A stretch of DNA of 64,000 nucleotides, from NCBI GenBank assembly GCA_000091205.1, contig AP006490.2; one strand, given 5' to 3'. Of this stretch, positions 2,538-63,119 are shown piece by piece. The first letter of the stretch is position 1; each line of letters begins with the position of its first letter. Both the position numbers and the translations under genes were made by a program. Source of the stretch: Cyanidioschyzon merolae (taxonomy: Eukaryota). Below the pieces are notes generated by a model that saw nothing but the letters and a program-made list of their open reading frames with translations, had not been told where the DNA came from and made no database searches.

Positions 2538-2942
2538 TCATGATACATAAAGGAATCTGAGAAGTGTATGCACAATGTGCCCATGTCCTCAGCACATGTA
2601 AGTAGTAGTAGTAGTAGTACGCCAGGAGAAATACGGAAATGTTCGCACCCTACTCCCGTTTCAGCTTACAACGGACCGAGTTCACGAACGGTGTCATACG
2701 CGCTAACGTCTGGGCATCCTGCTACGGGGCATCAACAGGGGCCTTTATTTGCTGTTTCTGCGTCGGCCCCGTGTCGTATTCCTCTCATCTCCTGCCTTTG
2801 AACGTGCTGGTCGCTCCGTTTTCTCCGGCTCTGTTGGGCACAGTCGAGGGCGGCTAATGGCAGCGTTCAGGTTCCGATATCGCCGCTTTCGGCTGTTGTC
2901 GACGCAGTTCACCTAGAGGCAGGCGTAGCGATCTACGCCTGG

Positions 2943-3503
2943 GTGCTCAGGTTCGCCATCTTTGTATACAGTCTAGGTGTGCTCTTCGCAACGGTAACAC
3001 TCGACACTAGTCAGATCATCCCATTTGTGTCCACTGCAACGCATCCGCCTCTATACGCCATCTGGTGGCGCTTGACGGCTTGCTTCGTCGCTCTGTACTT
3101 GCCCGTAAGGTATACAGAAGGCACCACTCGATATCCTGACGGTTTCCGCGCCCGATACGCTATGCCACGATCAAAGGTTTTCGCTGGGCGATGCATTCGG
3201 CGAGTCCGCAGTTGGCTGCACGCGCAAGAGCATGCTGTACCATTCGATGGCGGATTTGTGGAACTTGATTCTGTTGATGAGGAAGCAGGTACGGGAAGGA
3301 GTATCCGGGCTGGAGAACACGTCGAGACATTTCAATTCGTCTATGCTTCTTTTTTCGCCTCTGTGGCGCACGCTCTACTTGAAGCGATCGATGCAATGAC
3401 GCAAATCGAATTCCAGAACCCTTTTCCATGCAACCAGGAGAGTCGGGGGCCCTTCCGTCGACGTCCACAAAGAGAGATGCCTTTGTCTTTCCAACCGAAT
3501 TGA
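2943..3503 (+). CDS. Hypothetical protein (186 aa), no recognisable domain
   Basis: Isolated ORF in the 3-kb gap between EF1A and the E2 gene; only ORF length supports it. Confidence 0.15.
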   Translation: MLRFAIFVYSLGVLFATVTLDTSQIIPFVSTATHPPLYAIWWRLTACFVALYLPVRYTEGTTRYPDGFRARYAMPRSKVFAGRCIRRVRSWLHAQEHAVPFDGGFVELDSVDEEAGTGRSIRAGEHVETFQFVYASFFASVAHALLEAIDAMTQIEFQNPFPCNQESRGPFRRRPQREMPLSFQPN

Positions 3504-5439
3504 TTACTAGACATGACAAGTTCAGTGAGCACACATGACGAACTTGTGAACAGCTCGCCGAGGGACGGAGTCGAATCATTTTCGTCGTGAAAACCGGCGG
3601 CGCTGATGGCTGCCCCTATTCGTTGGCTTGAAAACTAGAGTCCGAAATCAAGATACATGCTTGATTCGAGCTTGCTGCACGTCACGAAAGGACAAGTACG
3701 GAGGATTGTACGTATGCATTGGATGGTGATATCTGGTATTTTGCGCACCCTTGATCAAGATCTTTGCGAATCATCTCGACTCCAATGACGTAACGGAGTC
3801 CAGCAGCAACTCGTCGAATGAATCACTCCGGGAAATCCACCAAGCATCTTAACAATGCCTATGAAACCGTAACCCCATGTTGCTGTCCAGCGACTATCGA
3901 GACTGTCCATCGAAACCAATCTCGGAATAAAACGTCGTGCGGGGACAGGGCGTGCGCTTCAGGTTTCCATTGTAAGCTGACACGTGTTCCGGCATTTGTA
4001 TCCGAAACCAGGCAGCAGGGCGTTGACGTGTACCAAGCACCTCAGTTGCAAACCCCGAACCTGTGCAGCTACTGCCCATGATGACCATGATCCCCGCACC
4101 CACTTAAATATTGCGTTCTGACTCTGGTATCTCGACGCCACTGGCGCGCTCGTCCAGGTCGAATGGCTATCAGGTCGCTACGGAACCACAAGTCGTTACC
4201 GCGCTTTGGTCATGCCTATATCAGGCCGCACGGAGATAACGCGGCATCTCCTCAGCCGACACCGCTCCAGCGCCCCCCGTCGCAGTGCATTTGTAAACGC
4301 TGGAGCACGGGTGTCTGCATACGCGTCGCGGTTACCCATTGATACCAACCGAGCGTGCACTACCGCGTAGAATATTCGGAATCGGAACGCCACATTTACA
4401 ACAAGTCCTTCACCACAAGCCGTACCGCAAGTATCTAGAATCTCTAATGAGCAAAAGGGTATCTGATTGGGCCCTAGGACGACTCAGGATGACGCTGGGT
4501 GTACGAACCTGCCTTGCAGAGAGCCGCACCTGCCTCCGTGGCATCGTTGTGCTGTGACTACTGCTCGTGCAGTGCGCGATCGCACCGAAGAGGCCCACAC
4601 GATAGCTGCAGCCTCCATATATCCACGTGCTTCTGTGCATATCTCCTTGCACAGTGCAGCGTCAATTTGCAGGTGTGCATAGCGAGCAATTAGCGGAGAG
4701 TGTCTGTGCAGTGCAGCACGCCAAACGACTTGCCAACGAGTGATCGAGCGCTTCACGATCGGGATAGAGTGTGTTGAGGTGTCGTGCGTTGCTCGCGATG
4801 GGTATCGTGCTTCATCGAGCTGCGCAACGCGCACTGGCATACACATCGCATGGTTTGGTATTGGGCAGCATGCGACACATCCCCTGCATACGTTTGGCGC
4901 TAGTTTCTTCTGCAATACACGTTCGCTGCATGGCGGATATGCTTCGCAAAGCGGTGGCGGCGTCCAAAGATCGTTTGCGGTGCCGTTCCACCGCCAGCTC
5001 CCTTGGCGAAACCTTCTGGCGCGTTTGACGATATCGCAGCCGAAACAGTATCCGCAGCAGTCACGGTGCTCGTATCGGTACTGTTGATGCCTCCAGATCA
5101 GCTGCAATGATGACACCAGGCCGATGCGCGACTGTGTTGACTGCGGCGGCACTGGAGCAGGTCAAGCGACAGCGGACGCGGGGAGCCTCACGGCGACGCG
5201 TGCTCGTCGTCATTGCCACACGCGAAGGTCCATGATTTCACTCGTTGCCGCTCAGCTTCACTGCAACAGACCTGCCCGCTACGCGCTGTCTCTCGGTCGA
5301 CTGAATGCTGGGACGAATTCCCGGGCCTCTGCGTTCACCGTACAGTCCATGTCGGGCTTTGCATGCCGCGCTGTCGCTGTGTACAGCGAGCTCGTGCATA
5401 TGAGCAGTGCGTTCGCACTGCGCGGATGTCGGGAAAGCA

Positions 5440-6171
5440 TCAGGAATTACCGTTGCCAACCAGGCGTCGTCCGCTGAAGCTGAACGCCTGAGCACCATCA
5501 TCCAGCGCATTGCGTTCCTCGTCGTCACTGTCACTCAGCGACTCGAGTTCACTTGCACTACCATTGGATGCCGCCCTGGTCGTATCGTGCGCCGAATCAG
5601 CGGCAGCGTTCGCAGTCGCACCCTTAGATGAAGAGGCCAGGGAGGATGTGCTCGGTTGGGCACTCCGGCTCTGCTGATGGCGACGCAGCGCCTGCGTTCT
5701 TGACGCCACTGGATAGTCCTCCTCGCGTGCATATCGATTCACGAATTCTCTCACTTTCTGTTGGAAACGCTGTGGCTCACGAAGATGCAGTGCCGCCGCT
5801 TCGCCGTTCAGAGGGTCCTGGCTGTTCGGATACGTGAGCAGCTGCGGTAGGAAAACCTCGAAAACGTTCAAAAGATCGAAGAGCGGCGACCAGGTCTGGT
5901 TAATCACATCCAAGCACACAGACCCACTCATCTGGTCGATGTTCGGATGATAGATAGCGTTCACGAAGCCGATACTTGGAGACTTGTATGGGTAGGCCTC
6001 GGGGAGCTCCACGTGTACCTTCCAGACACCGCCTTCGTAGGGCGTGTCCTTGGGACCCCGAAACTTCACGTAAAACTCCGCGTTGGAGTCCTCGTTCGCC
6101 ATTTCCACCTCGTAGTCCGCCATGACCAACTTCATTATGTCCATTTCGCGACGTCTTCCCGGAGACGACAT
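5440..6171 (-). CDS. UBE2H: Ubiquitin-conjugating enzyme E2, UBE2H-like, with Ser/acidic C-terminal tail
   Basis: UBC fold motifs: [38 protein letters not shown] plus active-site Cys in [13 protein letters not shown]. Start placed at the internal ATG ([11 protein letters not shown]), which matches the UBE2H N-terminus; the 28 upstream codons of the ORF are treated as 5' flank. Confidence 0.85.
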
Positions 6172-6251: not shown

Positions 6252-8011
6252 TCACCTATGCACCCTGAAAATAAACGTCTTTCTAAGGAAAAACGCTGCC
6301 ACCGGCGGGCGCAATACAGTCTTGGCGAGAAACCCGCCCTGGACAAGACTTCTCCAACTGACGTGCAGACGCCTGCCAGCCTTTCTGGAACGGGCACCCA
6401 CTACTGCTTCCAATTCTTTCTCATATAGTTCCATTTTGAGAGGCTGTCCGACAAAATGCTCTCTTGTCTACGCTGAAGGTCTGTTCTCCATCACCGCACA
6501 TCGCCTTCAATGGATAGCGGTATTTACGTCCCGGTTCTCAAACTCCATACGTTTCTTGTTATTGATCGTACTTACTGATGCAAGTTGTCCACGAACTTTT
6601 GCCATCCTTTCCATTTGCTCTTCCGTTAGCTGTTCGTACTTTTTTATATCTTCAGGGCTCCGCTCGCACTTTTTCATCTCAACTCTCTGGCGTGTACAAC
6701 CCAGTTCGTGGTTTGTATACGATGCCCGGAACTCATCGATGGGTATCGTAACGAAACGCCTTGCGCACTCTCTGAATGTTCTTGTCGTTGGAGCTGGCCT
6801 AGTCCCTTTTTGGGTCTTCCAGCGCCCTGCTCGGTACACTACTAAAAGCCTCTGACTGTCCTCCTCCTTCAAGGCGCTCAACCCATTGAAAAAGTTTGCG
6901 AACGCCCGCTGCATCCCCCAGTACAATTTCATAATGAAAAGAGAACACCGGGGCTTTGTATATTCTTTCCACAGCGCCTCCCAATGGGCAACACGAACTT
7001 CCATGAATTTCCGAAAAGCTTCCTAGGCCGCTCCGCGGCTCGTCACCTCGCTCAAAGCTTCCAGGTGATCATTCATTCCTGCATTCTACGTCTCGATTTT
7101 CTTGCTTGCATTCATGATTCCCGATTCTCGATGGTATCTCGCTCTCGAGAATCTCAACAGACGCATGTCTTTCTGAGGCAAGTTACCGTCAATGCCATCT
7201 TCCGCACGCTTGGGTACTGCGATGGTTACGATATTCGTGTTCCCGGGGTCCGCGCCAACGACAAGGTCGTTATCCTGGGGATTATACATTTCAGGGCCCA
7301 CCTCCATCTTATCTTCATGCTTCGTCACGGGCGAAGCGCAAGGCGCGATGGGACGATCCACCTTCAACCTCCGATACTGTACACACATGGCTACTCCATC
7401 GGTTTCGATCATCCCAGCGAATACCTTTTATTTGCTCACTTTGGGACGTTTGAAATCGAAGATATTCTTCCAGTACGTCTCACGGTTTTCACCGGGGAAC
7501 TCTGTCTTCCTTACATCGAACTCCGGACAGATCTCCCTCATGATGCCTTGAAGGACTCTGGAGCCGATGGTCACACAGTGTGACTCGATGTTGTTCAACG
7601 GAACGACGTTAAATTGCTTCCCCATTAGGAAAGCCTTTCGTATCTCCGACGCTTCATTTTTCTCCTCACTCAGCTTCATCTATGCCTCGCGTTCCAGTCC
7701 TCGGTCCAGGAACACGAAATAGCGCAGGATGAGGCGATCGTATCTTTTCTTATCTTTTTTTTCATCTCTGATAACTTTTCTGTTCGGTTCGCCAGCCCCA
7801 GTACCGCACGATGCTCTTGTATAACCCAACGGATTACAGGAGCTTCATTCTTTCTCCTGCGTGATGTCTTCTTGTCGAAGAATTCGATCTCCTGTTCATT
7901 CTGGCAATCCTTCGTGATGCCATTGATAATCGCCCATATTCCTTTGCGAGCGATGCCCGGGTAGAGTGCATAGACGGAGCGTTTCATGAAGCGTTCGAGG
8001 TTCATCGTCAA
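6252..8011 (-). mobile_element. TnpB/Fanzor-like (IS200/IS605 OrfB-type RuvC nuclease) element, copy 1, near full length but degraded
   Basis: Collinear minus-strand ORF pieces 7676-8011, 7428-7679, 7086-7412, 6507-7004 and 6252-6434; the last four share one frame separated by in-frame stops, and the first is joined by a -1 shift at an ATGA overlap. Motifs: RuvC-I-like [16 protein letters not shown], TnpB zinc-finger lead-in VTIPIDEFRASYTNHELGC...KKC, and RuvC-III-like ENRDVNTAIH. A paralogous fragment lies at 10.7-11.3 kb. Confidence 0.7.
6252..8011 (-). pseudogene. Fanzor/TnpB-like nuclease ORF interrupted by at least 3 in-frame stops and 1 frameshift (about 570 codons total)
   Basis: A TAA sits between 7428-7679 and 7086-7412 with open frame on both sides. 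A TAG sits between 7086-7412 and 6507-7004. I could not construct a frame-preserving GT..AG intron across either gap. Confidence 0.55.
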
Positions 8012-8533
8012 ATGGTTCTTCAGGTCCGTATGGTACTTGATCGTCCCGTAGGTTTAAAGATCCGAATCACCCCTGTATCGTGTACCCTCAGGGCGGTACT
8101 CGGCGTGATTCTCGTGGAGGGCATGAACCCGCTCATTTCCCCTCCGCGTTTCCCCTGTGCCAAGCATCAGGCGACAAATCAAGGTCCTGTCGAAAACGCT
8201 TTCGAAATCTCGACTGGTTTGATGTCCGTCACTGCTGCTGTGCCAGGGAAACTTCGTGCGCCTGATCGCACGCTGGAATGTGTTGTCGACGGGGCGCACT
8301 TCGGTGCAATGGATGGAACGTTGCGGAGCGGAACGCTGACAACATCTCCGTTCGGGCGCACAGGAACGACGCGATGCTTGGCAATGACCGCTGTCTGTTT
8401 CGACTTATCGGTCTGCGTAAGCGGATGTAACCAAACGGCACCGAAAATGATACAGGAGCGAGCGCACGATCCGCTCGCGCCCTGCGGGGGTCCGTTGCTC
8501 CCCTGCGATGCCCTCTAGCGATGCCCGTTGTCT

Positions 8534-10609
8534 TTACGCTGCATTCCCCGATTCTCTTTTCGCGAAAAGCTCGTACTCAACCTCTAGACTATCGTTTGTG
8601 GGATAGTCGGCTACAACCCGCTCGTACAAGTAGAGCGCATTCTCGTTCGTGACACTCTCGTCGATGTAGGCGCGTGCCTCGCGCAGCAGACGTGCGCTAT
8701 CTCGAGACAGACCCCACAGATGCAGCCGAATACCATAGCTCCTATACTGACGGGCTAGGGAGTCTAGCGCCTCTAGCGCTGTCGCGTCCCAGATGCGGCT
8801 ACCAGAGAAGTCGATGATCACGTGCTCATGGCCTTCGGCACGATCCCGTGCTGGGTCGAACAGACGACTGAAGCGCTCCGCCGTGCCAAAGAACAGCGGA
8901 CCGTCAATCCGGTATCCCCGCCATCCGCGCGTTTGCTCGTCCTCCGAAATAAAGCTCTGGGCGGTAATGCGTCGCGACGCTTTATAGGCAAAGACCAGCG
9001 CCGAGAATACCACACCAAACAGGACCGCCAGGGCGACGTTGCGCGTTGCTACAGTCATCAGGGCAACGCTCACAATGGTCAGCGAATCAGCGAGAGGTAT
9101 GGCACGAAACAAGCGCAGCGATGCCCATTCGAATGAGCCCAGCGCCACCAGCACCATAAGGCTTGCAATGGCTGGGACGGGAATCCGAATCATCAGTCCG
9201 CTCGGATTTCTCGCCAACACGAGAAGACACAGCGCCGCAGTCAGTCCAGAGAGACGCCCGCGTCCCCCTGATTTCGTGTTCAGAAGCGACTGGCCCAGGA
9301 GGCCGCAGCCGCCCACGCCACCGAATAAGCCCGCGGCGATATTCCCTGCCCCAAGCGCTAGACACTCCCGACGCGTGCTACCCCGCGATTCCGTGACTTC
9401 GTCTACCAAAGTCATGGTTAAAAGAGATTCCAAAAGACCGATGAATGCGAGACCAAGCGCGGTGCTCAGAATGGCCATCCATGCCAGCGGTGTTGACGGC
9501 AGGGCTGCCCAGGATACGCCAATGGCCCCTGACTGTGCCAGCGTGTCGCGCAAAAAGTCGCCAAGCCGCCGCACAGGCGCTTGCGTCACCTCCGCATAAA
9601 TGGATGCCACGAGGATGCCCGCTAGTGGGCTTGGGAGCCAACGCAACAGCTCAGCGAGGCGGTGCTGCCACCGATGGGTACTATCGGGGCGCCGGCGCTC
9701 TAGTCGCTGAATGATCAAGGGCCATACATGGGCGACTCCAGCGGCGAGCGCTGCGACGATCAACGCTGCACGCAACATGTTACCCTGGAGCCAGGGTGCG
9801 CCCGGGCTCAGCCCGGTTCCCGCTGGAAGCTGAAACGCATAGACCTGACTTGTCGCCGTCAAGATGGCGATGCCGCTGATGAATCCCAGAAAGGTAGGGT
9901 ACGATATCAGCCGCACAAACTTTCCCAAACGATAGATCCCGAAGAAAAGCTGGAGTATACCGCTGAGCACCACGGCGGCAGCGACCGCTGCTGCGCCGTA
10001 CTGTTGATAGAGAGGCGCTTGCAGAATAATGAGCGCTGCAGATGTTCCCGAGATCATGCCAGGGCGTCCTCCCAGTGCGGCAGTTATCGCACACAGGAGA
10101 CCAGTCGAGACGATTCCAGCGAGCGGCGGCACGCCCGTGGCCAACGCGCAAGACGCCGCCGCAGGCAGCAGCGCCATCGCCACCGTAATGCCCGCCAGCA
10201 CTTCCTCTACCGTCGAGCGTAGCGGATAGCGCGCTGTGCGTTCGTCCAAAATCCGACGCTCTCCAACGAAATAGCGCCCGATATCCTCACGTGGTGCAAC
10301 GAGCGGGAAGAGCCCTCGCTCACCAGGCTTGGGACGGTGCCTCGCTTCGGCGTCGGGGGTACCCCCTGGCGCCGAACCTGTCCCCCGTACGCGAGCAAGT
10401 GCTCCGCAGCGCGTACGCCGCCTCGCGCGGAACCCAGGCACCACCAGCGAGTTGCACTGGCTCCGGTTCCGTACGACGAAACGTACGCCGCTACCGCTGA
10501 AGGTATTCGTTACTATGAAACCGCCTAAAGCATTCTCAACGCCCATGTTCCGACGAAAGTACCTTGCGTGTCCAGTGAACAGGCAGTGCACAACAAGGCG
10601 CTCGTGCAT
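8534..10609 (-). CDS. SulP-family sulfate/anion permease with C-terminal STAS domain
   Basis: Multi-helix membrane core (GIVSTGLLCAITAALGGRPGMISGTSAALIIL; FLGFISGIAILTATSQ) followed by a STAS-like tail (HVIIDFSGSRIWDATALEALDSLARQYRSYGIRLHLWGL). The ORF extends upstream to 10717 on a TTG-type call; start set at the internal ATG (MHERL...), and 10546 (MGVENALGG) is an alternative. Confidence 0.85.
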   Translation of the reverse strand: MHERLVVHCLFTGHARYFRRNMGVENALGGFIVTNTFSGSGVRFVVRNRSQCNSLVVPGFRARRRTRCGALARVRGTGSAPGGTPDAEARHRPKPGERGLFPLVAPREDIGRYFVGERRILDERTARYPLRSTVEEVLAGITVAMALLPAAASCALATGVPPLAGIVSTGLLCAITAALGGRPGMISGTSAALIILQAPLYQQYGAAAVAAAVVLSGILQLFFGIYRLGKFVRLISYPTFLGFISGIAILTATSQVYAFQLPAGTGLSPGAPWLQGNMLRAALIVAALAAGVAHVWPLIIQRLERRRPDSTHRWQHRLAELLRWLPSPLAGILVASIYAEVTQAPVRRLGDFLRDTLAQSGAIGVSWAALPSTPLAWMAILSTALGLAFIGLLESLLTMTLVDEVTESRGSTRRECLALGAGNIAAGLFGGVGGCGLLGQSLLNTKSGGRGRLSGLTAALCLLVLARNPSGLMIRIPVPAIASLMVLVALGSFEWASLRLFRAIPLADSLTIVSVALMTVATRNVALAVLFGVVFSALVFAYKASRRITAQSFISEDEQTRGWRGYRIDGPLFFGTAERFSRLFDPARDRAEGHEHVIIDFSGSRIWDATALEALDSLARQYRSYGIRLHLWGLSRDSARLLREARAYIDESVTNENALYLYERVVADYPTNDSLEVEYELFAKRESGNAA

Positions 10610-10674
10610 TGCCGATGCTTCCGACGCGAGCGCTGAGATCCGTACATGCAATCTCGGATGGCGGGCAGTTTGAT

Positions 10675-11330
10675 CTCCGCATGAATCTATAATGTGGGGA
10701 GTATCGGGCATTCGCAATTTTTTTTTCAGTGAGTTGAGTGCCTTGAAGGAGGATGAAAGTCAAAGGCTCGTAGTAGCGTACGAAGCAAGGCGCTGGACGA
10801 CCCAACAAGGGTGTACACCAGATCCCACGACGAGAACGTATACGGAGTGCGCAAGGCGTTTTGTTATAATACCGGTAGATGGATTTCGAGCATTGTATAC
10901 ACACCATGAACTGGGCTGTACACTTCAGAGGGTCGAGATGGAAAAGTGCCAGCGGGGACCTGAGGATATAAAAAAAGTACGGACCGCTGACAGAAGAGCA
11001 AATGGAAAGGATAGCGAAAGTTCGAGGATTGCTTGCGTTAGTAAGTACAATCAACGGCAAGAAACGTATGGAGTTTGTGAACCGAGACTTTAACGCCGCA
11101 ATCAATATAAGGAAATGTGCGGTGAGAGAGGAAAGACCTCTCGGGTCGACGAGAGAGAATTTTGGAGGAAAACCGCTCAAAGTTAAACTATATGAGAAAA
11201 AGTTTGAAGCAGTAGTAGGTGGCCGGTCCAAAAAGACGGGCAGGCTTCTGCACATCAGTCGGAGACATTTCTTCTAGGGCGGCCCGGTCGCCACTACTGT
11301 ACACCGCTGGCGTCGTTCGCCTCCTGAACA
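10675..11330 (+). mobile_element. TnpB/Fanzor-like element, copy 2: 3' fragment only, inverted relative to copy 1
   Basis: ORFs 10692-11093 and 11002-11277 align with the C-terminal ~190 aa of copy 1 (FFFSELSALKEDESQRLVVAYEARRW...ARRFVIIPVDGFRALYTHHELGC... / MEFVNRDFNAAINIRKCAV) at roughly 75% identity. DNA homology begins near 10675 and continues about 50 bp past the stop. The frameshift between the two ORFs is a +1 in an A7 run near 10968. Confidence 0.7.
10692..11277 (+). pseudogene. C-terminal fragment of Fanzor/TnpB-like nuclease (zinc-finger lead-in plus RuvC-III motif NRDFNAAINI), frameshifted
   Basis: Same evidence as the copy 2 element; the fragment lacks the RuvC-I region. Confidence 0.6.
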
Positions 11331-11375
11331 GCGTTCGGTGTCGGCGATGGCGATGGCGATGGCTTTCCAGGCTCC

Positions 11376-12950
11376 CTAAAACAATTTGTTGAACACCTGC
11401 AAACCTAATTCGATAGCGATGAGCGCTACAATTGCTCTTTCAACGCGATGGGTGGTAGAGGTCGCCAGTTCACTATTCAGCAGCGCTAAAGAATCCTGTA
11501 CAATATCCATGCGCTTATCCAAAAGTCGTGCTCGCTTCTGTAGATCAACAACCTGAACACTCTGATTATAAACAGTTTCACTGCTGGGGTACTCCCAGAA
11601 AATCTCCGGGGTATCCAGGATATCTGAGAGCAGTGCGACCGAGTATTTGGCGGTGAGAAGCTGACCGATGCGTCGACGAAGATCGTCTTGGGCCACTGTG
11701 CGGAAGCGCCCGTATTTCGCGAGCTCTTCCGGCAGGCGTCGCGTCTCTTCCACCAGTCGATCAATGCTCAGCTCAAATACGAGCAATTTAACGCTCTGTG
11801 CGAGCCCAAAAGAGATCGCGAGCATACTCAAAGCGTCCGCATAATCATGCAGAAAAATACGGTCGTTGCGGAACTGAGTCAGCGAGTTGGGTATGCGCTC
11901 TTGATTTCGAGACAGCGGCGCCTGCAGCGCTGGACGAAGCTTCGCACGACCAAGGGCAGACGGCATCGGCAGTGCATGCTCAGCGGTCGCCAATCGATTC
12001 GGGGAGGCTGGCGCTGCGCTCGCCGCAAGTGCGGCACCCCCAGAGGGCGAAGTTCCATCCGGTGCATCGCTTAGAGTGTCGGTGCTGGACTGTGCGCTGT
12101 CCATGAGGTATGAAAATTCAAACTCATGGTCGAACTCCTCGAAGGTGACATTGGAATTGTAGCCGGGTTGTATGTCGCATCGACGTGCCAAGCGCAGCAA
12201 CTCCCGCCGCGTCTCCTCGTCCACATCCCAGAACACTGCTGCGCCTGACTCGAAGAAAAACACATGACCATCGGCATGTGGCATTCGGACCTGCTCCTGA
12301 CGAGTCGCAGGCCGCACCCGACAATGCAGTACGTCCCGGGAAAGGGTACTCGCATCCACGGTGGTGACCAGTGGGACCGAGCGAAGCAGGTCGCGCAGTT
12401 CTTCCAAGCGATACCCCGAAGCGAGGCAGTAAGCAGCACATATGCGTACTGCCTCGCCAGACGACCCGGAACGGGCCTTTGTTTTCCGCTGTTTATGAAC
12501 CCGCAGTGTGCTAGGCGAGCTTGGCGGTGGAGGCGGCGGCGGCGGTGGTGCAGCGGGCGTCGAGATGCCACCAACATCGACAACACTCGCCGTCGCCAGC
12601 GCTGCAACCTGTAAAGCAGTGCCGTGCGACTGCATCGCTGCAGTGCACGGCGTGTCGGCAGGCACATGGACACGCAACCACCACTGCGTGTGTTTTCTAA
12701 GGTAACTGGACAGCGTCCGCTTCTGAAGCGAATCCGTCCATGTTCGCCGGAATCCATTGGACGGGTAACCTAGATCTGAAGAGAAGCGAGCTTGCAGCTG
12801 CAAGATCCAGTTAATTCCCCCCTGTCGTCTGCACGCTTCACCAGAGCTGGTGGTCGAACACGTTCCAGCCCAGCGCCCGAGCCGCTGGTGCCGCAGTATC
12901 GCGCAGCAGCGCCCCGCAGTTCGTACAGCGCCTATTAATGCAGAGTTCAT
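11376..12950 (-). CDS. RMND1: RMND1/Sif2-family protein (DUF155, mitochondrial translation/meiosis-associated)
   Basis: DUF155 signature HVFFFESGAAVFWDVDEETRRELLRLA, and the family-typical C-terminal amphipathic/TM segment (RVERAIVALIAIELGLQVFNKLF). Confidence 0.7.
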   Translation of the reverse strand: MNSALIGAVRTAGRCCAILRHQRLGRWAGTCSTTSSGEACRRQGGINWILQLQARFSSDLGYPSNGFRRTWTDSLQKRTLSSYLRKHTQWWLRVHVPADTPCTAAMQSHGTALQVAALATASVVDVGGISTPAAPPPPPPPPPSSPSTLRVHKQRKTKARSGSSGEAVRICAAYCLASGYRLEELRDLLRSVPLVTTVDASTLSRDVLHCRVRPATRQEQVRMPHADGHVFFFESGAAVFWDVDEETRRELLRLARRCDIQPGYNSNVTFEEFDHEFEFSYLMDSAQSSTDTLSDAPDGTSPSGGAALAASAAPASPNRLATAEHALPMPSALGRAKLRPALQAPLSRNQERIPNSLTQFRNDRIFLHDYADALSMLAISFGLAQSVKLLVFELSIDRLVEETRRLPEELAKYGRFRTVAQDDLRRRIGQLLTAKYSVALLSDILDTPEIFWEYPSSETVYNQSVQVVDLQKRARLLDKRMDIVQDSLALLNSELATSTTHRVERAIVALIAIELGLQVFNKLF

Positions 12951-39079: not shown

Positions 39080-39708
39080 TCACTTGCGATTCACGGGAAT
39101 ACGCGCCCGCAGCTTTTCTCTTTGCTCGCGAGTATCCTCCGGAAGCGGCTGCAGGTACGGAGGCAGTCCAGGGAACTTGGGCACGTTGCCAGTGTCCAGA
39201 ATAGAGCGGCGCGCTAGCGTTGAGCCCGGACGATTTTCTGCCTTGGGCGCCGCCGCAGTAGCCACAGGCTGTTGCTCTTGCTGCTGGGTCGCTCCAGTAC
39301 GCGCTTCCGCAAAGGAACGCGCCTGTGCTGTCCGCTGACGCTGCTCCTCTTCCTCCTCCTGCTTCGTCTTCGCGCGCTTGGGCACTACCTTTGGACGACC
39401 GATTGCAGCCATCGGGGCGCGGATAGGAGGTTTCGCCGCCTCTGGGACATCGTCGTCGTCGTCCTCCTCCCTCCGCTCCGGAACATCTTTAAAAGGAGAC
39501 TTGACAACACCCTTCTTGACCAACTCACTGGTCGGCGCTGTTTGCGTCACTGGCGGCTTGTAACCCGGTTCACCGGGCTGAGGTTCCGCCTGCAGCTGGG
39601 AAACCAACGCTCGCCGCGCCGTCGCAGCCCGTGTACGCCGGCTGCAGCGCGACTGAACCGCACCAGAGCGCGTTCCGATAAAACCTGAGCTGATAACAAA
39701 CGCCATCG
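39080..39708 (-). CDS. Low-complexity Pro/Glu/Gln-rich hypothetical protein
   Basis: ORF with an acidic block (EEDDDDDV), polyE/Q, and C-terminal RSILDTGNVPKFPGLPPYLQPLPED. No domain recognised; the upstream part of the listed ORF runs into the satellite array. Confidence 0.3.
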
Positions 39709-39899
39709 CACCAGCAGACTGTATCCGAAGCAACGCACAGTACCAAACGCGTTCTTCTATGACAGGTAACGCGCACGCGACAAAAGTGTTGGCGTCTGCG
39801 TTGAACGCAGCTCGATGCCATCGCGCTGCGGTTTGCGCAGGCGGTTTCCCGCTGCGCCTCAGCGGTGCGCTGTGATCTCCGGGGTCGCCACGAGACGCC

Positions 39900-40750
39900 C
39901 GTCGACGCTGCGCCAGCAAACGGCGCGCTGCTGTGCGCCGAGGAACGCGCTGTCCCGTATCTGGGGGGCAGAGGTGCGCACAATCGGAAGTTATGTACAA
40001 TATATAGCATAGTTATATATTTATGTCGCAGGCCAGCACACGGCGCGCTGCTGTGCGTCGAGGAACGCGCTGTCCCGTACCTGGAGGCAGAGGTGCGCAC
40101 AATAAAAAGTTATGTACAATATATTGCATAGTTATATATTTATGTCGCAGGCCAGCACACGGTGCGATGTTGTGCGTCAACGCGCTGTCCCGTACCTGGG
40201 GGCAGAGGTGCGCACAATCGGAAGTTATGTACAATATATAGCATAGTTATCTATTTATGTCGCAGGCCAGCACACGGCGCGCTGCTGTGCGCCGAGGAAC
40301 GCGCTGTCCCGTATCTGGGGGGCAGAGGTGCGCACAATCGGAAGTTATGTACAATATATAGCATAGTTATATATTTATGTCGCAGGCCAGCACACGGCGC
40401 GCTGCTGTGCGTCGAGGAACGCGCTGTCCCGTACCTGGAGGCAGAGGTGCGCACAATAAAAAGTTATGTACAATATATTGCATAGTTATATATTTATGTC
40501 GCAGGCCAGCACACGGTGCGATGTTGTGCGTCAACGCGCTGTCCCGTACCTGGGGGCAGAGGTGCGCACAATAAAAAGTTATGTACAATATATTGCATAG
40601 TTATATATTTATGTCGCAGGCCAGCACACGGCGCGCTGCTGTGCGTCGAGGAACGCGCTGTCCCGCACCTGGGGGGCAGAGGTACGCACAATAAAAAGTT
40701 ATGTACAATATATTGTATAGTTATCTATTTATGTCGCAGGCCAGCATGTA
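39900..40750. repeat. Satellite array: ~118-bp monomer x7, organised as a ~355-bp three-monomer higher-order repeat x2 plus one monomer
   Basis: Monomers begin atgtcgcaggccagca at about 40023, 40142, 40258, 40378, 40497, 40611 and 40731. Three monomer subtypes A, B and C recur in the order A-B-C-A-B-C-B. Repeat-derived ORFs recur at a 354-bp offset (40013-40234 versus 40367-40588). Confidence 0.85.
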
Positions 40751-58494: not shown

Positions 58495-60514
58495 AGAGCA
58501 GCTCTCGACGGAACTGGAATTTCGTGCAACCCTGCTTGGAACCAAGGGGCAAGACGTAGAAGCGTGCCAACGACGCTGCTGCACTGTCAGGCACGAGGTC
58601 GCGCCAGCTCCCCAGGCACCGCAAGCGTGACGCTGTGTGCCCGAACCTTGCGATCAGCACCCTCGTAAGCTATTCAGCGGCTGCAGTACCTGAAGTTCCT
58701 CTTTCTGGAGCGTTCCGTAAACACTCACTGATGATCAACCGCTTCGTTGGAGTAAGTTCCGCAGCAAAACGCGCCAAAACGGTGTGAACGTTTTGCGCGC
58801 CGCTTTTGGCGCGTTCTACGACACCTGCTGAAAAGTGCGCTGTGCTGTGCTGTGCAGCGCTGCATACGCATAGAGAAACTCAAAGAGCAGTGAGGTTTTG
58901 AATACCTCGATCAGCGTGCTTTTTGTTCTTATTGGTTCGTATGTCAGGTATTGAACGAATGGGGAGCACCCAGTCGATAGGGAAAATGTCAAGGAAAGCA
59001 CTTGTGCTGTCACAGTTAACGAACGAGACGTGTCTTTGTTCGACCTGTCAGTTATTCAACGATCTGCGGGGAGAGGAACCATCCTTCTCGTTGTCCTTGT
59101 TCTAGAAATCGTACACCCAAAATGGAACCCTTCAAACTCTATTCCTATGAGTTCGCTCTTGCCAATTAATTCCATTCTATACGTTCTTTAAGACCTAGTA
59201 CAAAACTAGTCACAGGATGCCGAGGTTCCGTACTGCTGCTTCGAAAGGTGATGGGTAGACGTGAACGCTCGAAGCAACCGGTATAATTGTATTGGAGACC
59301 GTGCCATATTGAATGACAAACTATTGGCTTCGTCCTGAAATACGAACGCTTCGAATATGGAAGAAAGATGCTCATCTACCTCGATGAGACTTCATTCGGG
59401 GCAAATGGTACACCCTAAGACGGGTACTCAGAGAGCGACAAAGCGCTGTCTGTCAAGGACGTATAAGCGAGCGCTCGGATAATATCAGCTCCTGAGGCGA
59501 TACTGTTATGGCATCGCGTGCCGGTCACGGAACGGGCAGGCTGGTTCTGCCCCAACTCCATTTTCGAAGCACTCTTCGTGGCTTCTCCTACCCAGCTTCT
59601 TCACCCTCGATCATTCACGAATCCGCTTCTCATCACTCAAAAGCGGTCACGGAGTTTGCAGTTGCGACTCTCGTTGAGCTGCTATTCGTCCGAGCAAGTC
59701 CTTTCTAGTACAATGCAGTCCAAGGTGTCTTCTCTGTCGTCAAAAGACATTTTTGAGCTCACAGTCCAATGGACGAGTCGTTCGTGCCCCTGGCACCATT
59801 CTGTACCGAAACCGGCCCTGGACTGCTCGGGTGCTCCTCTGTTCGTGCGCATGCTCGAGTAGAAAGACGCGCTGCGGTCTGTAGGTATGCTCGTGACGGA
59901 GGAGTCACGAAAATGTACCCAGGGATTCGGGAATAGACACAGAGATGGGGTGAGCTTCAGTCGTACCGTCCACAAAGAGCGTCTGAATCGCGAAGCGAAA
60001 AGGCTGTCGTGTCTGGCCACGATAGTCATATCGTCCCGCTTTTTCGAAGAGAATGCGATGAAACCAACGGGCTTCGAAGAGAAAGTTCCTTCCCAAGACA
60101 GGACCAGGAGATACCGGAAGAAAAGCATTTGTTCCAGAAATATACGTCAGAAAACGTTCTTCAAAGCCCTGCTGCTAAAACACATCGACGGAGAGAATCT
60201 TCCCATAGATGAGATGCAGGCTGCCACTTAAGGATCGCATAGGATCCTACTTTTGAAAGGCAAACCTTGCTTCGCTCGCCTAGCCGCACCTCGTTCTCCA
60301 ACTGTTCGTAGGAACTCTGGACACGGGGCTGCCAACTAACCACATCTCTCCGGGATTTCTCGATCAAACTCTCGAATGAAAACACACCTGATGCTCGGTA
60401 CAGAGGGCTACCATATGGCCTGATCGAAGGATGAACGATGCCCAGCAACGCCTCCCAGAATACCTTGACACTTCGCTGCTGCACACCTGCGGCCAGAATG
60501 GCCATAGCGCAGAT

Positions 60515-60975
60515 GCCATAAAGTATGATACCATCCTCAAAACCCATATACGGGGCAAACATTGTCGCCATAAAGTATGATACCATCCTCAGAACCCATA
60601 TACGGGGCAAACATTGTCGCCATAAAGTATGATACCATCCTCAGAACCCATATACGGGGCAAACATTGTCGCCATAAAGTATGATACCATCCTCAAAACC
60701 CATATACGGGGCAAACATTGTCGCCATAAAGTATGATACCATCCTCAAAACCCATATACGGGGCAAACATTGTCGCCATAAAGTATGATACCATCCTCAG
60801 AACCCATATACGGGACAAACATTGTCGCCATAAAGTATGATACCATCCTCAGAACCCATATACGGGGCAAACATTGTCGCCATAAAGTATGATACCATCC
60901 TCAAAACCCATATACGGGGCAAACATTGTCGCCATAAAGTCTGATACCATCCTCAGAACCCATATACGAGACAAT
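60515..60975. repeat. 52-bp satellite x9
   Basis: gccataaagtatgataccatcctcaRaacccatatacggggcaaacattgtc repeated at an exact 52-bp period from 60515 to 60931, with two alternating variants (caaaac and cagaac). The minus-strand MPRIWVLRMVSYFMA ORFs are repeat artefacts. Confidence 0.85.
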
Positions 60976-63119
60976 GTTGAACGCCTCGTGATGCGTTCCA
61001 CGTGCTCGTTGTATGCTCAGGCTACCGGCGTAGAGAAAGGGAGCGCTGATGGGAGGAGTTCTGTCTCGTGTCGATAGAAGCAGTTGACGAGCTGGCTGTG
61101 GAGCAGGCATCGAGATGGTAGCGAACCTGGAAGAGATGCCGTCGCAGCGACAGCGACCGTTACTTCAGATCCTCCAAGCTCATGGTGTTAGGTGCCGGCC
61201 TCGGAGCTACGCAAGTCGTATCCCGAGGACGGTTCAAATGCGACTACTGCCCTGCACCTTGCGCTATATCGTGCTCCCGAACAGAGCCGCTCAATACAAA
61301 TCAGAGTTTCTCCCCGCACAGAAGCGCCCTCATATCCTCTGGCGTATATTCGATATGGTTTCCATACGTAGGATTGAGAATCATTATATCACTGTAAACA
61401 GTTTTGTGGTGTATGGGTGCCTCATTGCCCTGCGACTGATCTCAACGATTAGGTGCGTAGTATTGCCACAATGTCGCGAAAAGGATTGGCGGAGCTCGCT
61501 TACGGTACCGCGTTCATATGGGGAAAATCCAAATAAAATCTCAGACACAACGGTGACCGACGGAATATCAGTTCGCACGCACTTGGTTGCACATAGGCCA
61601 AAGTGGACCAACGAGACTCATTTTGAACTGTGCAACGTAGACGAAGAGCAAGACTCGGCGTTGCGCGAGGATCCTGGGTAGAACGGCGTCCTGGTCGTCG
61701 CCGTGCCTCTCTTTTTAATCCAGACTACACAGCCCAATACCCGACGGCAAACCAGTTGGAGATGCTCGGCTTTTCCAGACCTATGTATCAAGAGCGTCGA
61801 GCATGATTGACACCAGCAGGTATCACAAGAGAGGGAATCACGGCATCGTGACCCTGTTATACGCTCTGAGCACCGTATCGTACTGAAGTGTATACTTAGT
61901 ACACTCGATCCAGAGAGAACGAGAGCATCTATGTGGCACGTGCGGACGCACCTCGGCAGACGTGTTTGAAACCGCTCTGGGATCGCCAACGATTCGTTTG
62001 TACAAAGGCCAGAAGTCCGCTTTGTCAGCTTGTTCAATGCCTTGAGAAAGGAAATGCGCGATAAAACTCGTCATTCGGATGTAGTCTACCGCGCTGGACG
62101 TGTGGGCATGCGCACGAGTAGCACGCCATTCCCCTCTGACGAGAGCGTATAACGAGTGCAGGAATCGATACTGTGCGATTACCCCTGATGCCTTCGAGAC
62201 GACATACAACCATTACGAGCACAAACACAGGACGAAACAGGTCGAGCACAAGATCGTGAAACGGTTATGGGTGCATGACCTGGTGTACTGGAAGCTGACC
62301 GAACCTCAGATATTTGAGCAATCGAAGGTGAGAGGCTCGCTGTGGAGCGATTCCACCTGCAACAGAACGTGCAAGCACTTGCTGTTGCGCGACTTGATCG
62401 CTTCGCTCAAAATCAGGAAATATCTCAAGTCCTTCCACAATTTCTCCCGGCTTTTTGTCGAGCAAGCTTTCGATAAAATCACTGAATACTCGGCATGCGC
62501 TTGGTGCTCAAGTGCTGCACGCTTCCGGTGAAAATAAAACAGGTGGCCAGGAGAATCAACAATGGATTCCCCCCTGGAGCAAGGCATTAATTGGGTACAT
62601 TCAACGAGCCAGAAAAGCTGGAGCGCTGTTCATGTATCCGTCGGGGACGATTCTCGTGGGCACTGTTGAACCGTCCTGGTAACCTCCAAGTCTACCATAC
62701 GAGTTCAAGAAACATGATCAGGATCATTCCATTCCATCCACACGTTCAACATCGACAAGCTAGCTTGGGATGTTCAGTTTACAATCTAGAAGAGCGTAAA
62801 CTATCCTGGATATAAAACTAGAACCTGACAACACCACACAAACAATGCTTTATGGAGTGCGCTTTTGCCAGATCTTGTCGCTTTGGAAGACTAGTCGCCG
62901 ATGTCCATTTCCGTTCGCAGCGCGTCAAGCAAAGAGCAGCAGACGTTTTCGGTACGGCGTTACGGAACGTTTCTTTGCTGGTCAGCTGGGCGGCAGACAT
63001 CAATCACCCTGTGACTGCAAATAGGCAGAGTTGCAGCGGGGAAGCACACGCGCTTCCACCTACAGGAGACCACAGACGGGACTCCCCTGAGGCTGTACGA
63101 GCCTTTGTACGAGTTCCGC

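Follow-up and report, generated by a model that had tools for sequence, protein, structure and literature searches.

A dead, 5'-truncated Fanzor1 relic, most probably of the CMe-1A family, next to an inverted SulP gene in Cyanidioschyzon merolae

Fanzor proteins were defined by Bao and Jurka (2013, Mob DNA 4:12; PMC3627910), who list one Fanzor1 family in Cyanidioschyzon merolae. This family, CMe-1A, has ~150 copies, each ~80% identical to a ~3-kb consensus. It has no terminal inverted repeats (TIRs), its target-site duplications (TSDs) could not be determined, and its 5' 635 bp form a separate element, TE-N2_CMe. Rhodophytes are also among the Fanzor hosts reported by Jiang et al. 2023 (PMC10530073). 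Here, we examine a stretch of 64,000 nucleotides from C. merolae (contig AP006490.2; "the window"), in which a reading of the sequence alone (the sequence-only reading) had flagged positions 6252-8011, between an E2 gene and a SulP transporter gene, as a decaying relic of a TnpB/Fanzor-type nuclease. We conclude, with a probability of roughly 93%, that this region is a dead, 5'-truncated copy of a Fanzor1 transposable element of C. merolae. The family is most probably CMe-1A, given the species, the type of protein, the divergence among copies, the length, the 5' module, and the lack of TIRs.

The relic, which we call copy 1, lies on the minus strand (Table 1). It is 78–82% identical at the nucleotide level (blastn) to a full copy on a metagenome contig (L004), where it corresponds to positions 9565-11632, and its tblastn alignments to homologous proteins show 59–71% amino acid identity over the high-scoring segments. 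When translated, it matches the profile of the protein family (described below) with i-Evalues of 3.5e-99 (7778-6441) and 1.9e-22 (8215-7769), which is far beyond chance. The locus had been placed correctly but its limits had not: homology runs from ~6274, just past a terminal hairpin, to ~8232 by blastn (8215 by the profile). The motifs quoted in the sequence-only reading (a RuvC-I motif, IDEFRASYT, and NRDVNTAIH) are all present on the minus strand as it described them.

To identify the protein, we relied on homologues of the window sequence rather than on its broken reading frames. A protein search returned 79 homologues from metagenome contigs of the hot-spring type, the closest of them 77% identical, and an exhaustive search gave 1084 representative clusters at E<=1e-3, many of them full-length (600–700 amino acids). 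We built a profile hidden Markov model (HMM) from 52 full-length members, with residues numbered after the homologue P0004, and compared it with the PDB (177,635 sequences, E<=1). Only three proteins matched, and all are Fanzor1: PpFz1 from Parasitella (9cf0, 5.6e-18), SpuFz1 from Spizellomyces (8gkh, 9.2e-12), and GtFz1 from Guillardia (9cer, 1.3e-4). No TnpB appeared among the matches. The family profile was needed because a single-sequence search of the PDB with a distant homologue (P0079) gave nothing relevant.

The catalytic residues point the same way. Among the 52 members, D232 and E404 are invariant and D473 is nearly so (motifs DPG, DEF, and NRD). In the profile alignment, these residues align with D383, E541, and D606 of SpuFz1 (counted from the chain numbering of the maltose-binding protein fusion), which coordinate two Mg2+ ions (PMC10432273). 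The strand that carries the canonical RuvC-II glutamate in TnpB reads VVAYGAG, and the family has Gly or Ala at the glutamate's position; the conserved E404 lies 33 residues downstream. This corresponds to the "rearranged catalytic site" of Fanzors (PMC10530073). A structure prediction, which the sequence-only reading had suggested as a check, agrees as well. We modeled P0004, which is 65% identical to the window copy, rather than that copy itself (AlphaFold2; mean predicted local distance difference test [pLDDT] of 78 and predicted template-modeling score [pTM] of 0.74). The first seven Foldseek matches to this model are all Fanzor1 structures (E from 5.6e-12 to 1.5e-7, template-modeling scores of 0.41–0.51), followed at ranks 8–26 by Cas12o, Cas12b, Cas12i, TnpB, and Cas12f. 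These results support the assignment of the family to Fanzor1 specifically, and not to prokaryotic TnpB, and they bear out the earlier suggestion of a TnpB/Fanzor-type RuvC nuclease lineage in a eukaryotic chromosome.

Copy 1 itself is dead: it cannot make a nuclease because it has seven in-frame stop codons and a frameshift. The stops are TAA 8056-8054, TAG 7682-7680, TAA 7430-7428, TAG 7088-7086, TAG 7025-7023, TGA 6509-6507, and TAG 6470-6468, and all seven are sense codons in homologues (Y, E, K/Q, W, F, I, and S). The sequence-only reading had noted one TAA, one TAG, and a -1 shift; the shift is there, but the count of stops was too low, and its view of a decaying relic rather than an active enzyme is strengthened. 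The copy begins at about residue 95 of the longest homologue, so at least ~95 N-terminal codons are absent, and relative to L004 it lacks ~1.2 kb at the 5' end (all of the 5' module, plus ~570 bp at the start of the coding body). The codons of the D/E/D triad are still present. The [TS][TS] lead-in within IDEFRASYT is mutated (TS to AS), and the zinc-finger segment reads NHELGC...C. The pairing of the 3'-terminal hairpin, CGTTTTTC-CTTA-GAAAGACG, has been kept by compensated changes.

The retained D/E/D codons, and the fact that the pieces are collinear, are what one might also expect of a functional host gene whose stops are spliced out or bypassed by recoding. We consider such a gene extremely improbable. 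The stops are not intronic, because each of the seven falls within a stretch whose codon-by-codon alignment to the homologues has a sense codon at that place. The frameshift falls in a homopolymer run, and the copy is missing ~95 N-terminal codons along with the 5' part of its element. C. merolae reportedly has ~27 introns genome-wide (a figure attributed to Matsuzaki et al. in 2004), which also counts against splicing. Furthermore, exactly three genes (E2, SulP, and DUF155) fit between EF-1alpha (BAM79877) and BAM79881 in the GenBank protein numbering, which implies that no gene is annotated in the flagged interval between E2 and SulP. Nor do we give much more than passing credence to a prokaryotic TnpB of the IS200/IS605 or IS607 type, brought in by horizontal transfer or by bacterial contamination. 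It would account for the remote TnpB/Cas12 homology at the lower Foldseek ranks and for weak matches to PF07282, and the neighboring SulP does have bacterial-like closest outgroups. But the PDB matches of the profile are solely to eukaryotic Fanzor1, the canonical RuvC-II glutamate is absent, and we saw no TnpA-like open reading frame (ORF) beside the copies, although we made no systematic search for one. Also, the flanks are nuclear genes of C. merolae whose synteny is conserved in other Cyanidiales, and the ~75 related loci are on eukaryotic-type contigs.

If it resembles its characterized relatives, an intact element would encode a Fanzor1 protein of ~650–750 amino acids, an RNA-guided DNA endonuclease of the TnpB/Cas12 lineage with a single RuvC domain and a rearranged D...E...D active site (the D of DPG, the E of DEF, and the D of NRD). 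This protein would bind an omega-RNA transcribed at the element's 3' end and would cleave matching double-stranded DNA beside a short target-adjacent motif (TAM). A guide RNA from the 3' end has precedents in SpuFz1, GtFz1, and ApmFz (PMC10432273, PMC10530073).

To describe the element, we compared copies from 75 related metagenome loci. Some of these contigs are 99.3–99.4% identical to the window, so the loci may largely represent the C. merolae family itself. Pairs among 64 distinct copies have a median identity of 82%, and the window copies each match the consensus of these 64 at ~86%. The full element is ~3.3 kb (~8340-11665 in L004), and its ~620-bp 5' module in L004 is more diverged. The element has a sharp 3' end, whose consensus is ...CACCGCTGGCGT-CGTTCGA-CTT-TCGAACG-GCGTT. 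This is a 10-bp hairpin that includes a T:G pair, which can form on the sense strand only. After it comes a short tail of degenerate hexamers that differs from copy to copy (for example, GGTGTC, GGCGAT, and GGTATC; 3' ends of L004–L080). The last ~250 nucleotides of the element are conserved, and 3' ends are nearly always intact, while 5' ends vary from copy to copy. The element has no TIRs, and neither an exact 5' terminus of the full element nor TSDs could be defined from the copies compared.

The coding body has a sharp 5' start (..CGCGCTCGATA..), and what lies upstream of it takes at least four different forms, which are the ~620-bp module, unrelated DNA, and a 1.27-kb repeat ("X") that occurs in both orientations. 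Repeat X abuts the start of the coding body, and at its left end it is similar to the 5' terminus of the ~620-bp module. The loci behind these observations on X and on paired copies are L005 (8401-9671), L008 (1-2951), L036, L050, L052, L053, L044, L055, L057, and L063. An ORF in X was reminiscent of the C-terminal zinc knuckle of ORF2 from a long interspersed nuclear element, but it has no Pfam match and we dropped this label. Copies also occur as head-to-head, outward-facing pairs (L008, L044, L055, L057, and L063). In L008, the arrangement is [<-Fz][X][Fz->], and in several loci, truncated head-to-head copies abut directly. Among ~80 loci checked, only L005/L008 has an uninterrupted ORF over the whole conserved region (HMM positions 4-600). 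This locus belongs to a near-identical environmental strain, and the first in-frame ATG of the ORF comes after a basic N-terminal stretch.

Several related copies show another kind of variation: a ~25-residue unit, with the RuvC-I strand (..QKVQDNDLVVDA.KHEE.K.A..) at its end, is repeated in tandem two to five times. The duplications (~10450-10700 in L004 and ~11100-11400 in L005; also in P0001, P0004, and P0007) are just upstream of the true DPG. The AlphaFold2 model is disordered at these units. The window copy has a single unit.

A second relic (copy 2) lies on the other side of the SulP gene. The sequence-only reading had called it a better-preserved paralogue; its NRDFNAAINI motif is there, but it is an inverted 3' fragment of 0.65 kb that is 78.5% identical to copy 1 at the nucleotide level. 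We used the SulP protein to find the orthologous loci in Cyanidiococcus yangmingshanensis, in a metagenomic relative, and in Cyanidium caldarium. In all three, the order is EF1a(+), E2(-), SulP(+), DUF155(-), WD40(-). In the window, genes and orientations follow this pattern except that SulP is on the minus strand, and blastn shows that the reversed segment is SulP alone. SulP from Cyanidium is 55% identical to the window's, as compared to 79–83% for the other two, and if this lower identity marks Cyanidium as the outgroup, then the inversion would be derived in the C. merolae lineage. An HMM scan of the Cyanidiococcus and metagenomic loci found no Fanzor relic.

In the window, relics sit at both junctions of the inverted segment. 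On the left, the E2 start codon is followed by 102 nucleotides, copy 1 (from its 3' end to its truncated 5' end), 301 nucleotides, and the SulP stop codon. On the right, the SulP start codon is followed by 131 nucleotides, copy 2 (from its truncated 5' end to its 3' end and tail), 12 nucleotides, and the DUF155 stop codon. Thus, both 3' ends face the non-inverted flanks and both truncated 5' ends face the inverted segment. Neither of copies 1 and 2 has the other as its closest relative (they are 78.5% identical, versus a median of 80% to other copies), although they have 23 derived sites in common where 12 are expected. We therefore rejected the idea that they are sister copies from one event, and we take them to be independent insertions. 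The simplest explanation, and the most likely origin of the inversion, is then that two copies inserted separately in opposite orientations and later underwent ectopic homologous recombination with each other.

Alternatively, the element itself could have made the inversion, by an insertion-coupled or replicative event or through misrepair of double-strand breaks made by Fanzor. Such an origin would fit the way in which both intact 3' ends, with hairpin and tail, join the non-inverted flank while the truncated 5' ends join the inverted segment. It would also fit the recurrent outward-facing pairs and the prevalence of intact 3' ends with variable 5' ends. We nevertheless think it unlikely: copies 1 and 2 are no closer than unrelated copies and are truncated at different points, so they are not a recent duplicate pair; they share only slightly more derived sites than expected; and the geometry is explained just as well by ordinary recombination between inverted repeats. 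The terminal hairpin with its variable hexamer tail, the intact 3' ends, the variable 5' truncation, the lack of TIRs, and the coding body behind several different 5' partners can be read as signs of a polar, 3'-anchored mechanism of mobilization, whose insertion or cleavage steps may have produced the SulP inversion and possibly the head-to-head pairs. This is a speculative proposal that we would not bet on, but if true, it would be a type of carrier and a mode of rearrangement that have not been described for Fanzor elements. A different question is why the relics were retained. They might now serve as regulatory DNA, as a promoter or terminator for E2, SulP, or DUF155. The gaps are short (~102 nucleotides from the E2 start to copy 1, ~131 from the SulP start to copy 2, and 12 from the tail to the DUF155 stop), and in the relatives there are 0.8–1.8 kb between E2 and SulP. 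But the relics diverge at the rate of other copies, with no sign of constraint, and we consider a regulatory role quite unlikely.

Several observations weigh against our interpretation of copy 1 as a Fanzor1 element or of its surroundings as an inversion. Searches of the six ORF pieces in the window against Pfam gave no match at E<=1, and close homologues gave only noise or sub-threshold matches to PF07282. This model (Cas12f1-like TNB) has weak matches in 9 of the 52 family members (best 5.6e-5). The Pfam models for TnpB that had been proposed as a check (OrfB_IS605 and OrfB_Zn_ribbon) do not detect the element. The C4 zinc-finger ligands (CxxC...CxxC), which are strictly conserved in Fanzor according to Bao and Jurka (PMC3627910), are replaced by HH...C...C in the C. 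merolae clade; the segment that would form this putative zinc ribbon (TNB domain), between RuvC-II and RuvC-III, is present. Our identification of CMe-1A follows its published description, as opposed to an alignment to the Repbase consensus, and is probable on that basis. As for the 3' end, RNAalifold predicted no pairs from 60 copies, and the covariation of the consensus hairpins was not above that of shuffled alignments; a two-hairpin structure that we specified by hand was 80% paired, versus ~40% when it was slid along the 3' region. On these results, we do not claim an RNA structure under selection. Turning to the inversion, its breakpoints cannot be mapped to the base because intergenic DNA is too diverged between species (even the Cyanidiococcus and metagenomic loci cannot be aligned to each other there). 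The near-identical metagenome contigs end at repeats and give no independent support for the orientation of SulP, which rests on the finished 10D assembly. A misassembly is unlikely because the repeat arms are only 78% identical.

Table 1. Coordinates of the Fanzor1 relics and of adjacent genes in the window.
Feature	Position	Strand	Remarks
EF-1alpha gene	left of E2	+	BAM79877
E2 gene	5440-6171	-	start codon at 6171
Copy 1, 5'-truncated relic (pseudogene) of a Fanzor1 element, CMe-1 type	6274-8232	-	blastn, family HMM, tblastn; ends ~102 nt upstream of the E2 start codon
3'-terminal hairpin of copy 1, followed by TT	6295-6276	-	consensus feature of the family's 3' end
RuvC-III motif of copy 1, NRDVNTAIH	6536-6510	-	Asp = D473 = SpuFz1 D606; in-frame TGA directly after
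IDEFRASYT of copy 1	6740-6714	-	alternative catalytic Glu = family-invariant E404 = SpuFz1 E541
Strand of the canonical TnpB RuvC-II Glu in copy 1	6819-6848	-	reads Tyr/Arg/Ala/Gly ("rearranged" Fanzor configuration)
RuvC-I motif of copy 1 (16 residues)	7262-7215	-	Asp = family-invariant D232 = SpuFz1 D383
A8 run with frameshift in copy 1	7762-7755	-	+2, equivalent to -1; joins two reading frames
SulP transporter gene	8534-10546	-	670 aa; between two Fanzor1 relics
Copy 2, last ~0.65 kb of the element	10678-11335	+	inverted relative to copy 1; blastn, tblastn, family HMM
NRDFNAAINI of copy 2	11080-11109	+	
Terminal hairpin of copy 2	11314-11333	+	
Hexamer microsatellite tail behind copy 2, CGGTGTC(GGCGAT)3GGC	11336-11364	+	ends 12 nt from the DUF155 stop codon
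DUF155 protein gene	11376-12950	-	adjoins the tail of copy 2
Copy 3, far more diverged Fanzor1 relic	60227-62426	+	family HMM positions 53-587, in three pieces

The window contains three to four Fanzor1 copies in all. The tail of copy 2 has three GGCGAT units, as compared to two in a metagenome strain that is 99.3% identical (L085). Copy 3 carries REDPG*, DAFETTYNHYEH, and RDLIASLKIRKYL, and it is split by a tandem array at 60515-60968 (a 52-bp unit repeated 8.7 times, 98% identity). There is also a weak Fanzor-like fragment at 270-509 on the plus strand, upstream of EF-1alpha (HMM positions 484-551, i-Evalue 6e-4), which reads ..VIFGYGTSA..SVPVTSMY..WEYRTTVTC.. and may be a fourth, very old relic.

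The window is nuclear DNA of C. merolae: four of its long ORFs are identical to GenBank proteins of strain 10D from a 739,753-bp chromosome (EF-1alpha BAM79877, BAM79881, BAM79884, and BAM79891), and its long ORFs without introns on both strands and ~55% G+C fit that genome. Exact look-ups of the E2 and DUF155 proteins gave no entry. Across the whole window, we found no Rfam families (at gathering thresholds) and no tRNAs (ARAGORN). The spacer between EF-1alpha and E2 (2538-5439) is 2.9 kb, versus 0.8 kb in Cyanidium and 1.5–1.9 kb in the other two relatives. SulP is 55–83% identical within the Cyanidiales. Outside that group, its closest matches are bacterial SulP proteins of ~521 amino acids (Alteromonas and relatives, 38–41% identity), with no eukaryotes from other groups among the best 120 matches, and the gene may have come from bacteria by horizontal transfer. 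A tandem array at 39912-40746 (a 120-bp unit repeated 7.1 times, with a higher-order period of 354 bp and 96% identity) overlaps the beginning of a minus-strand ORF (39080-40000).

The Fanzor1 identity is not new: the Fanzor1 of C. merolae was published in 2013 in the paper that named Fanzor (PMC3627910). Fanzors are by now established as RNA-guided nucleases and copy 1 is an inert pseudogene, so our main conclusion leaves current knowledge unchanged. The placement of two relics at both ends of a single-gene inversion is a new but modest detail. It gives a clean case of a one-gene inversion between two inverted Fanzor relics, to which three outgroup genomes give a polarity, and the genome that carries it is very compact and poor in transposable elements. 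The ends of the family (the sharp start of the body, the 3' hairpin, and the microsatellite tail) are described here for the first time; they are only partly resolved but could help with classification. For studies of activity, L005/L008 would be the copy of choice, given its uninterrupted ORF.

Among the known systems, TnpB (ISDra2, 8h1j) and Cas12f have the RuvC fold and the general WED/REC/RuvC/TNB layout in common with this family (Foldseek E of 6.4e-3 and weaker). TnpB differs in that its canonical RuvC-II glutamate is replaced in this family, which also has a eukaryotic genomic context and does not match the Pfam models OrfB_IS605 and OrfB_Zn_ribbon at threshold. SpuFz1, PpFz1, and GtFz1 are much closer: they are the sole profile matches in the PDB and the best structural matches, with an aligned D/E/D triad and the same rearranged glutamate. 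Still, they are only 12–16% identical to the P0004 model, the zinc-finger cysteines are not conserved in this family, and the SpuFz1 element has 30-nucleotide inverted repeats (PMC10432273), while this family has none. The nearest described element is CMe-1A. Unlike it, the window copy has no 5' module and is missing ~570 bp at the start of the coding body. Sections 6 and 12 of PMC3627910 and its passages on C. merolae mention neither the SulP inversion nor the hairpin and hexamer tail at the element's end. As published, CMe-1A otherwise looks like the family that we describe: it is a multi-copy element of the same species that encodes a Fanzor1 protein, is ~3 kb long with copies at ~80% identity, has no TIRs or recognizable TSDs, and has a separate 5' module of ~620–635 bp, which the related loci examined here also carry.

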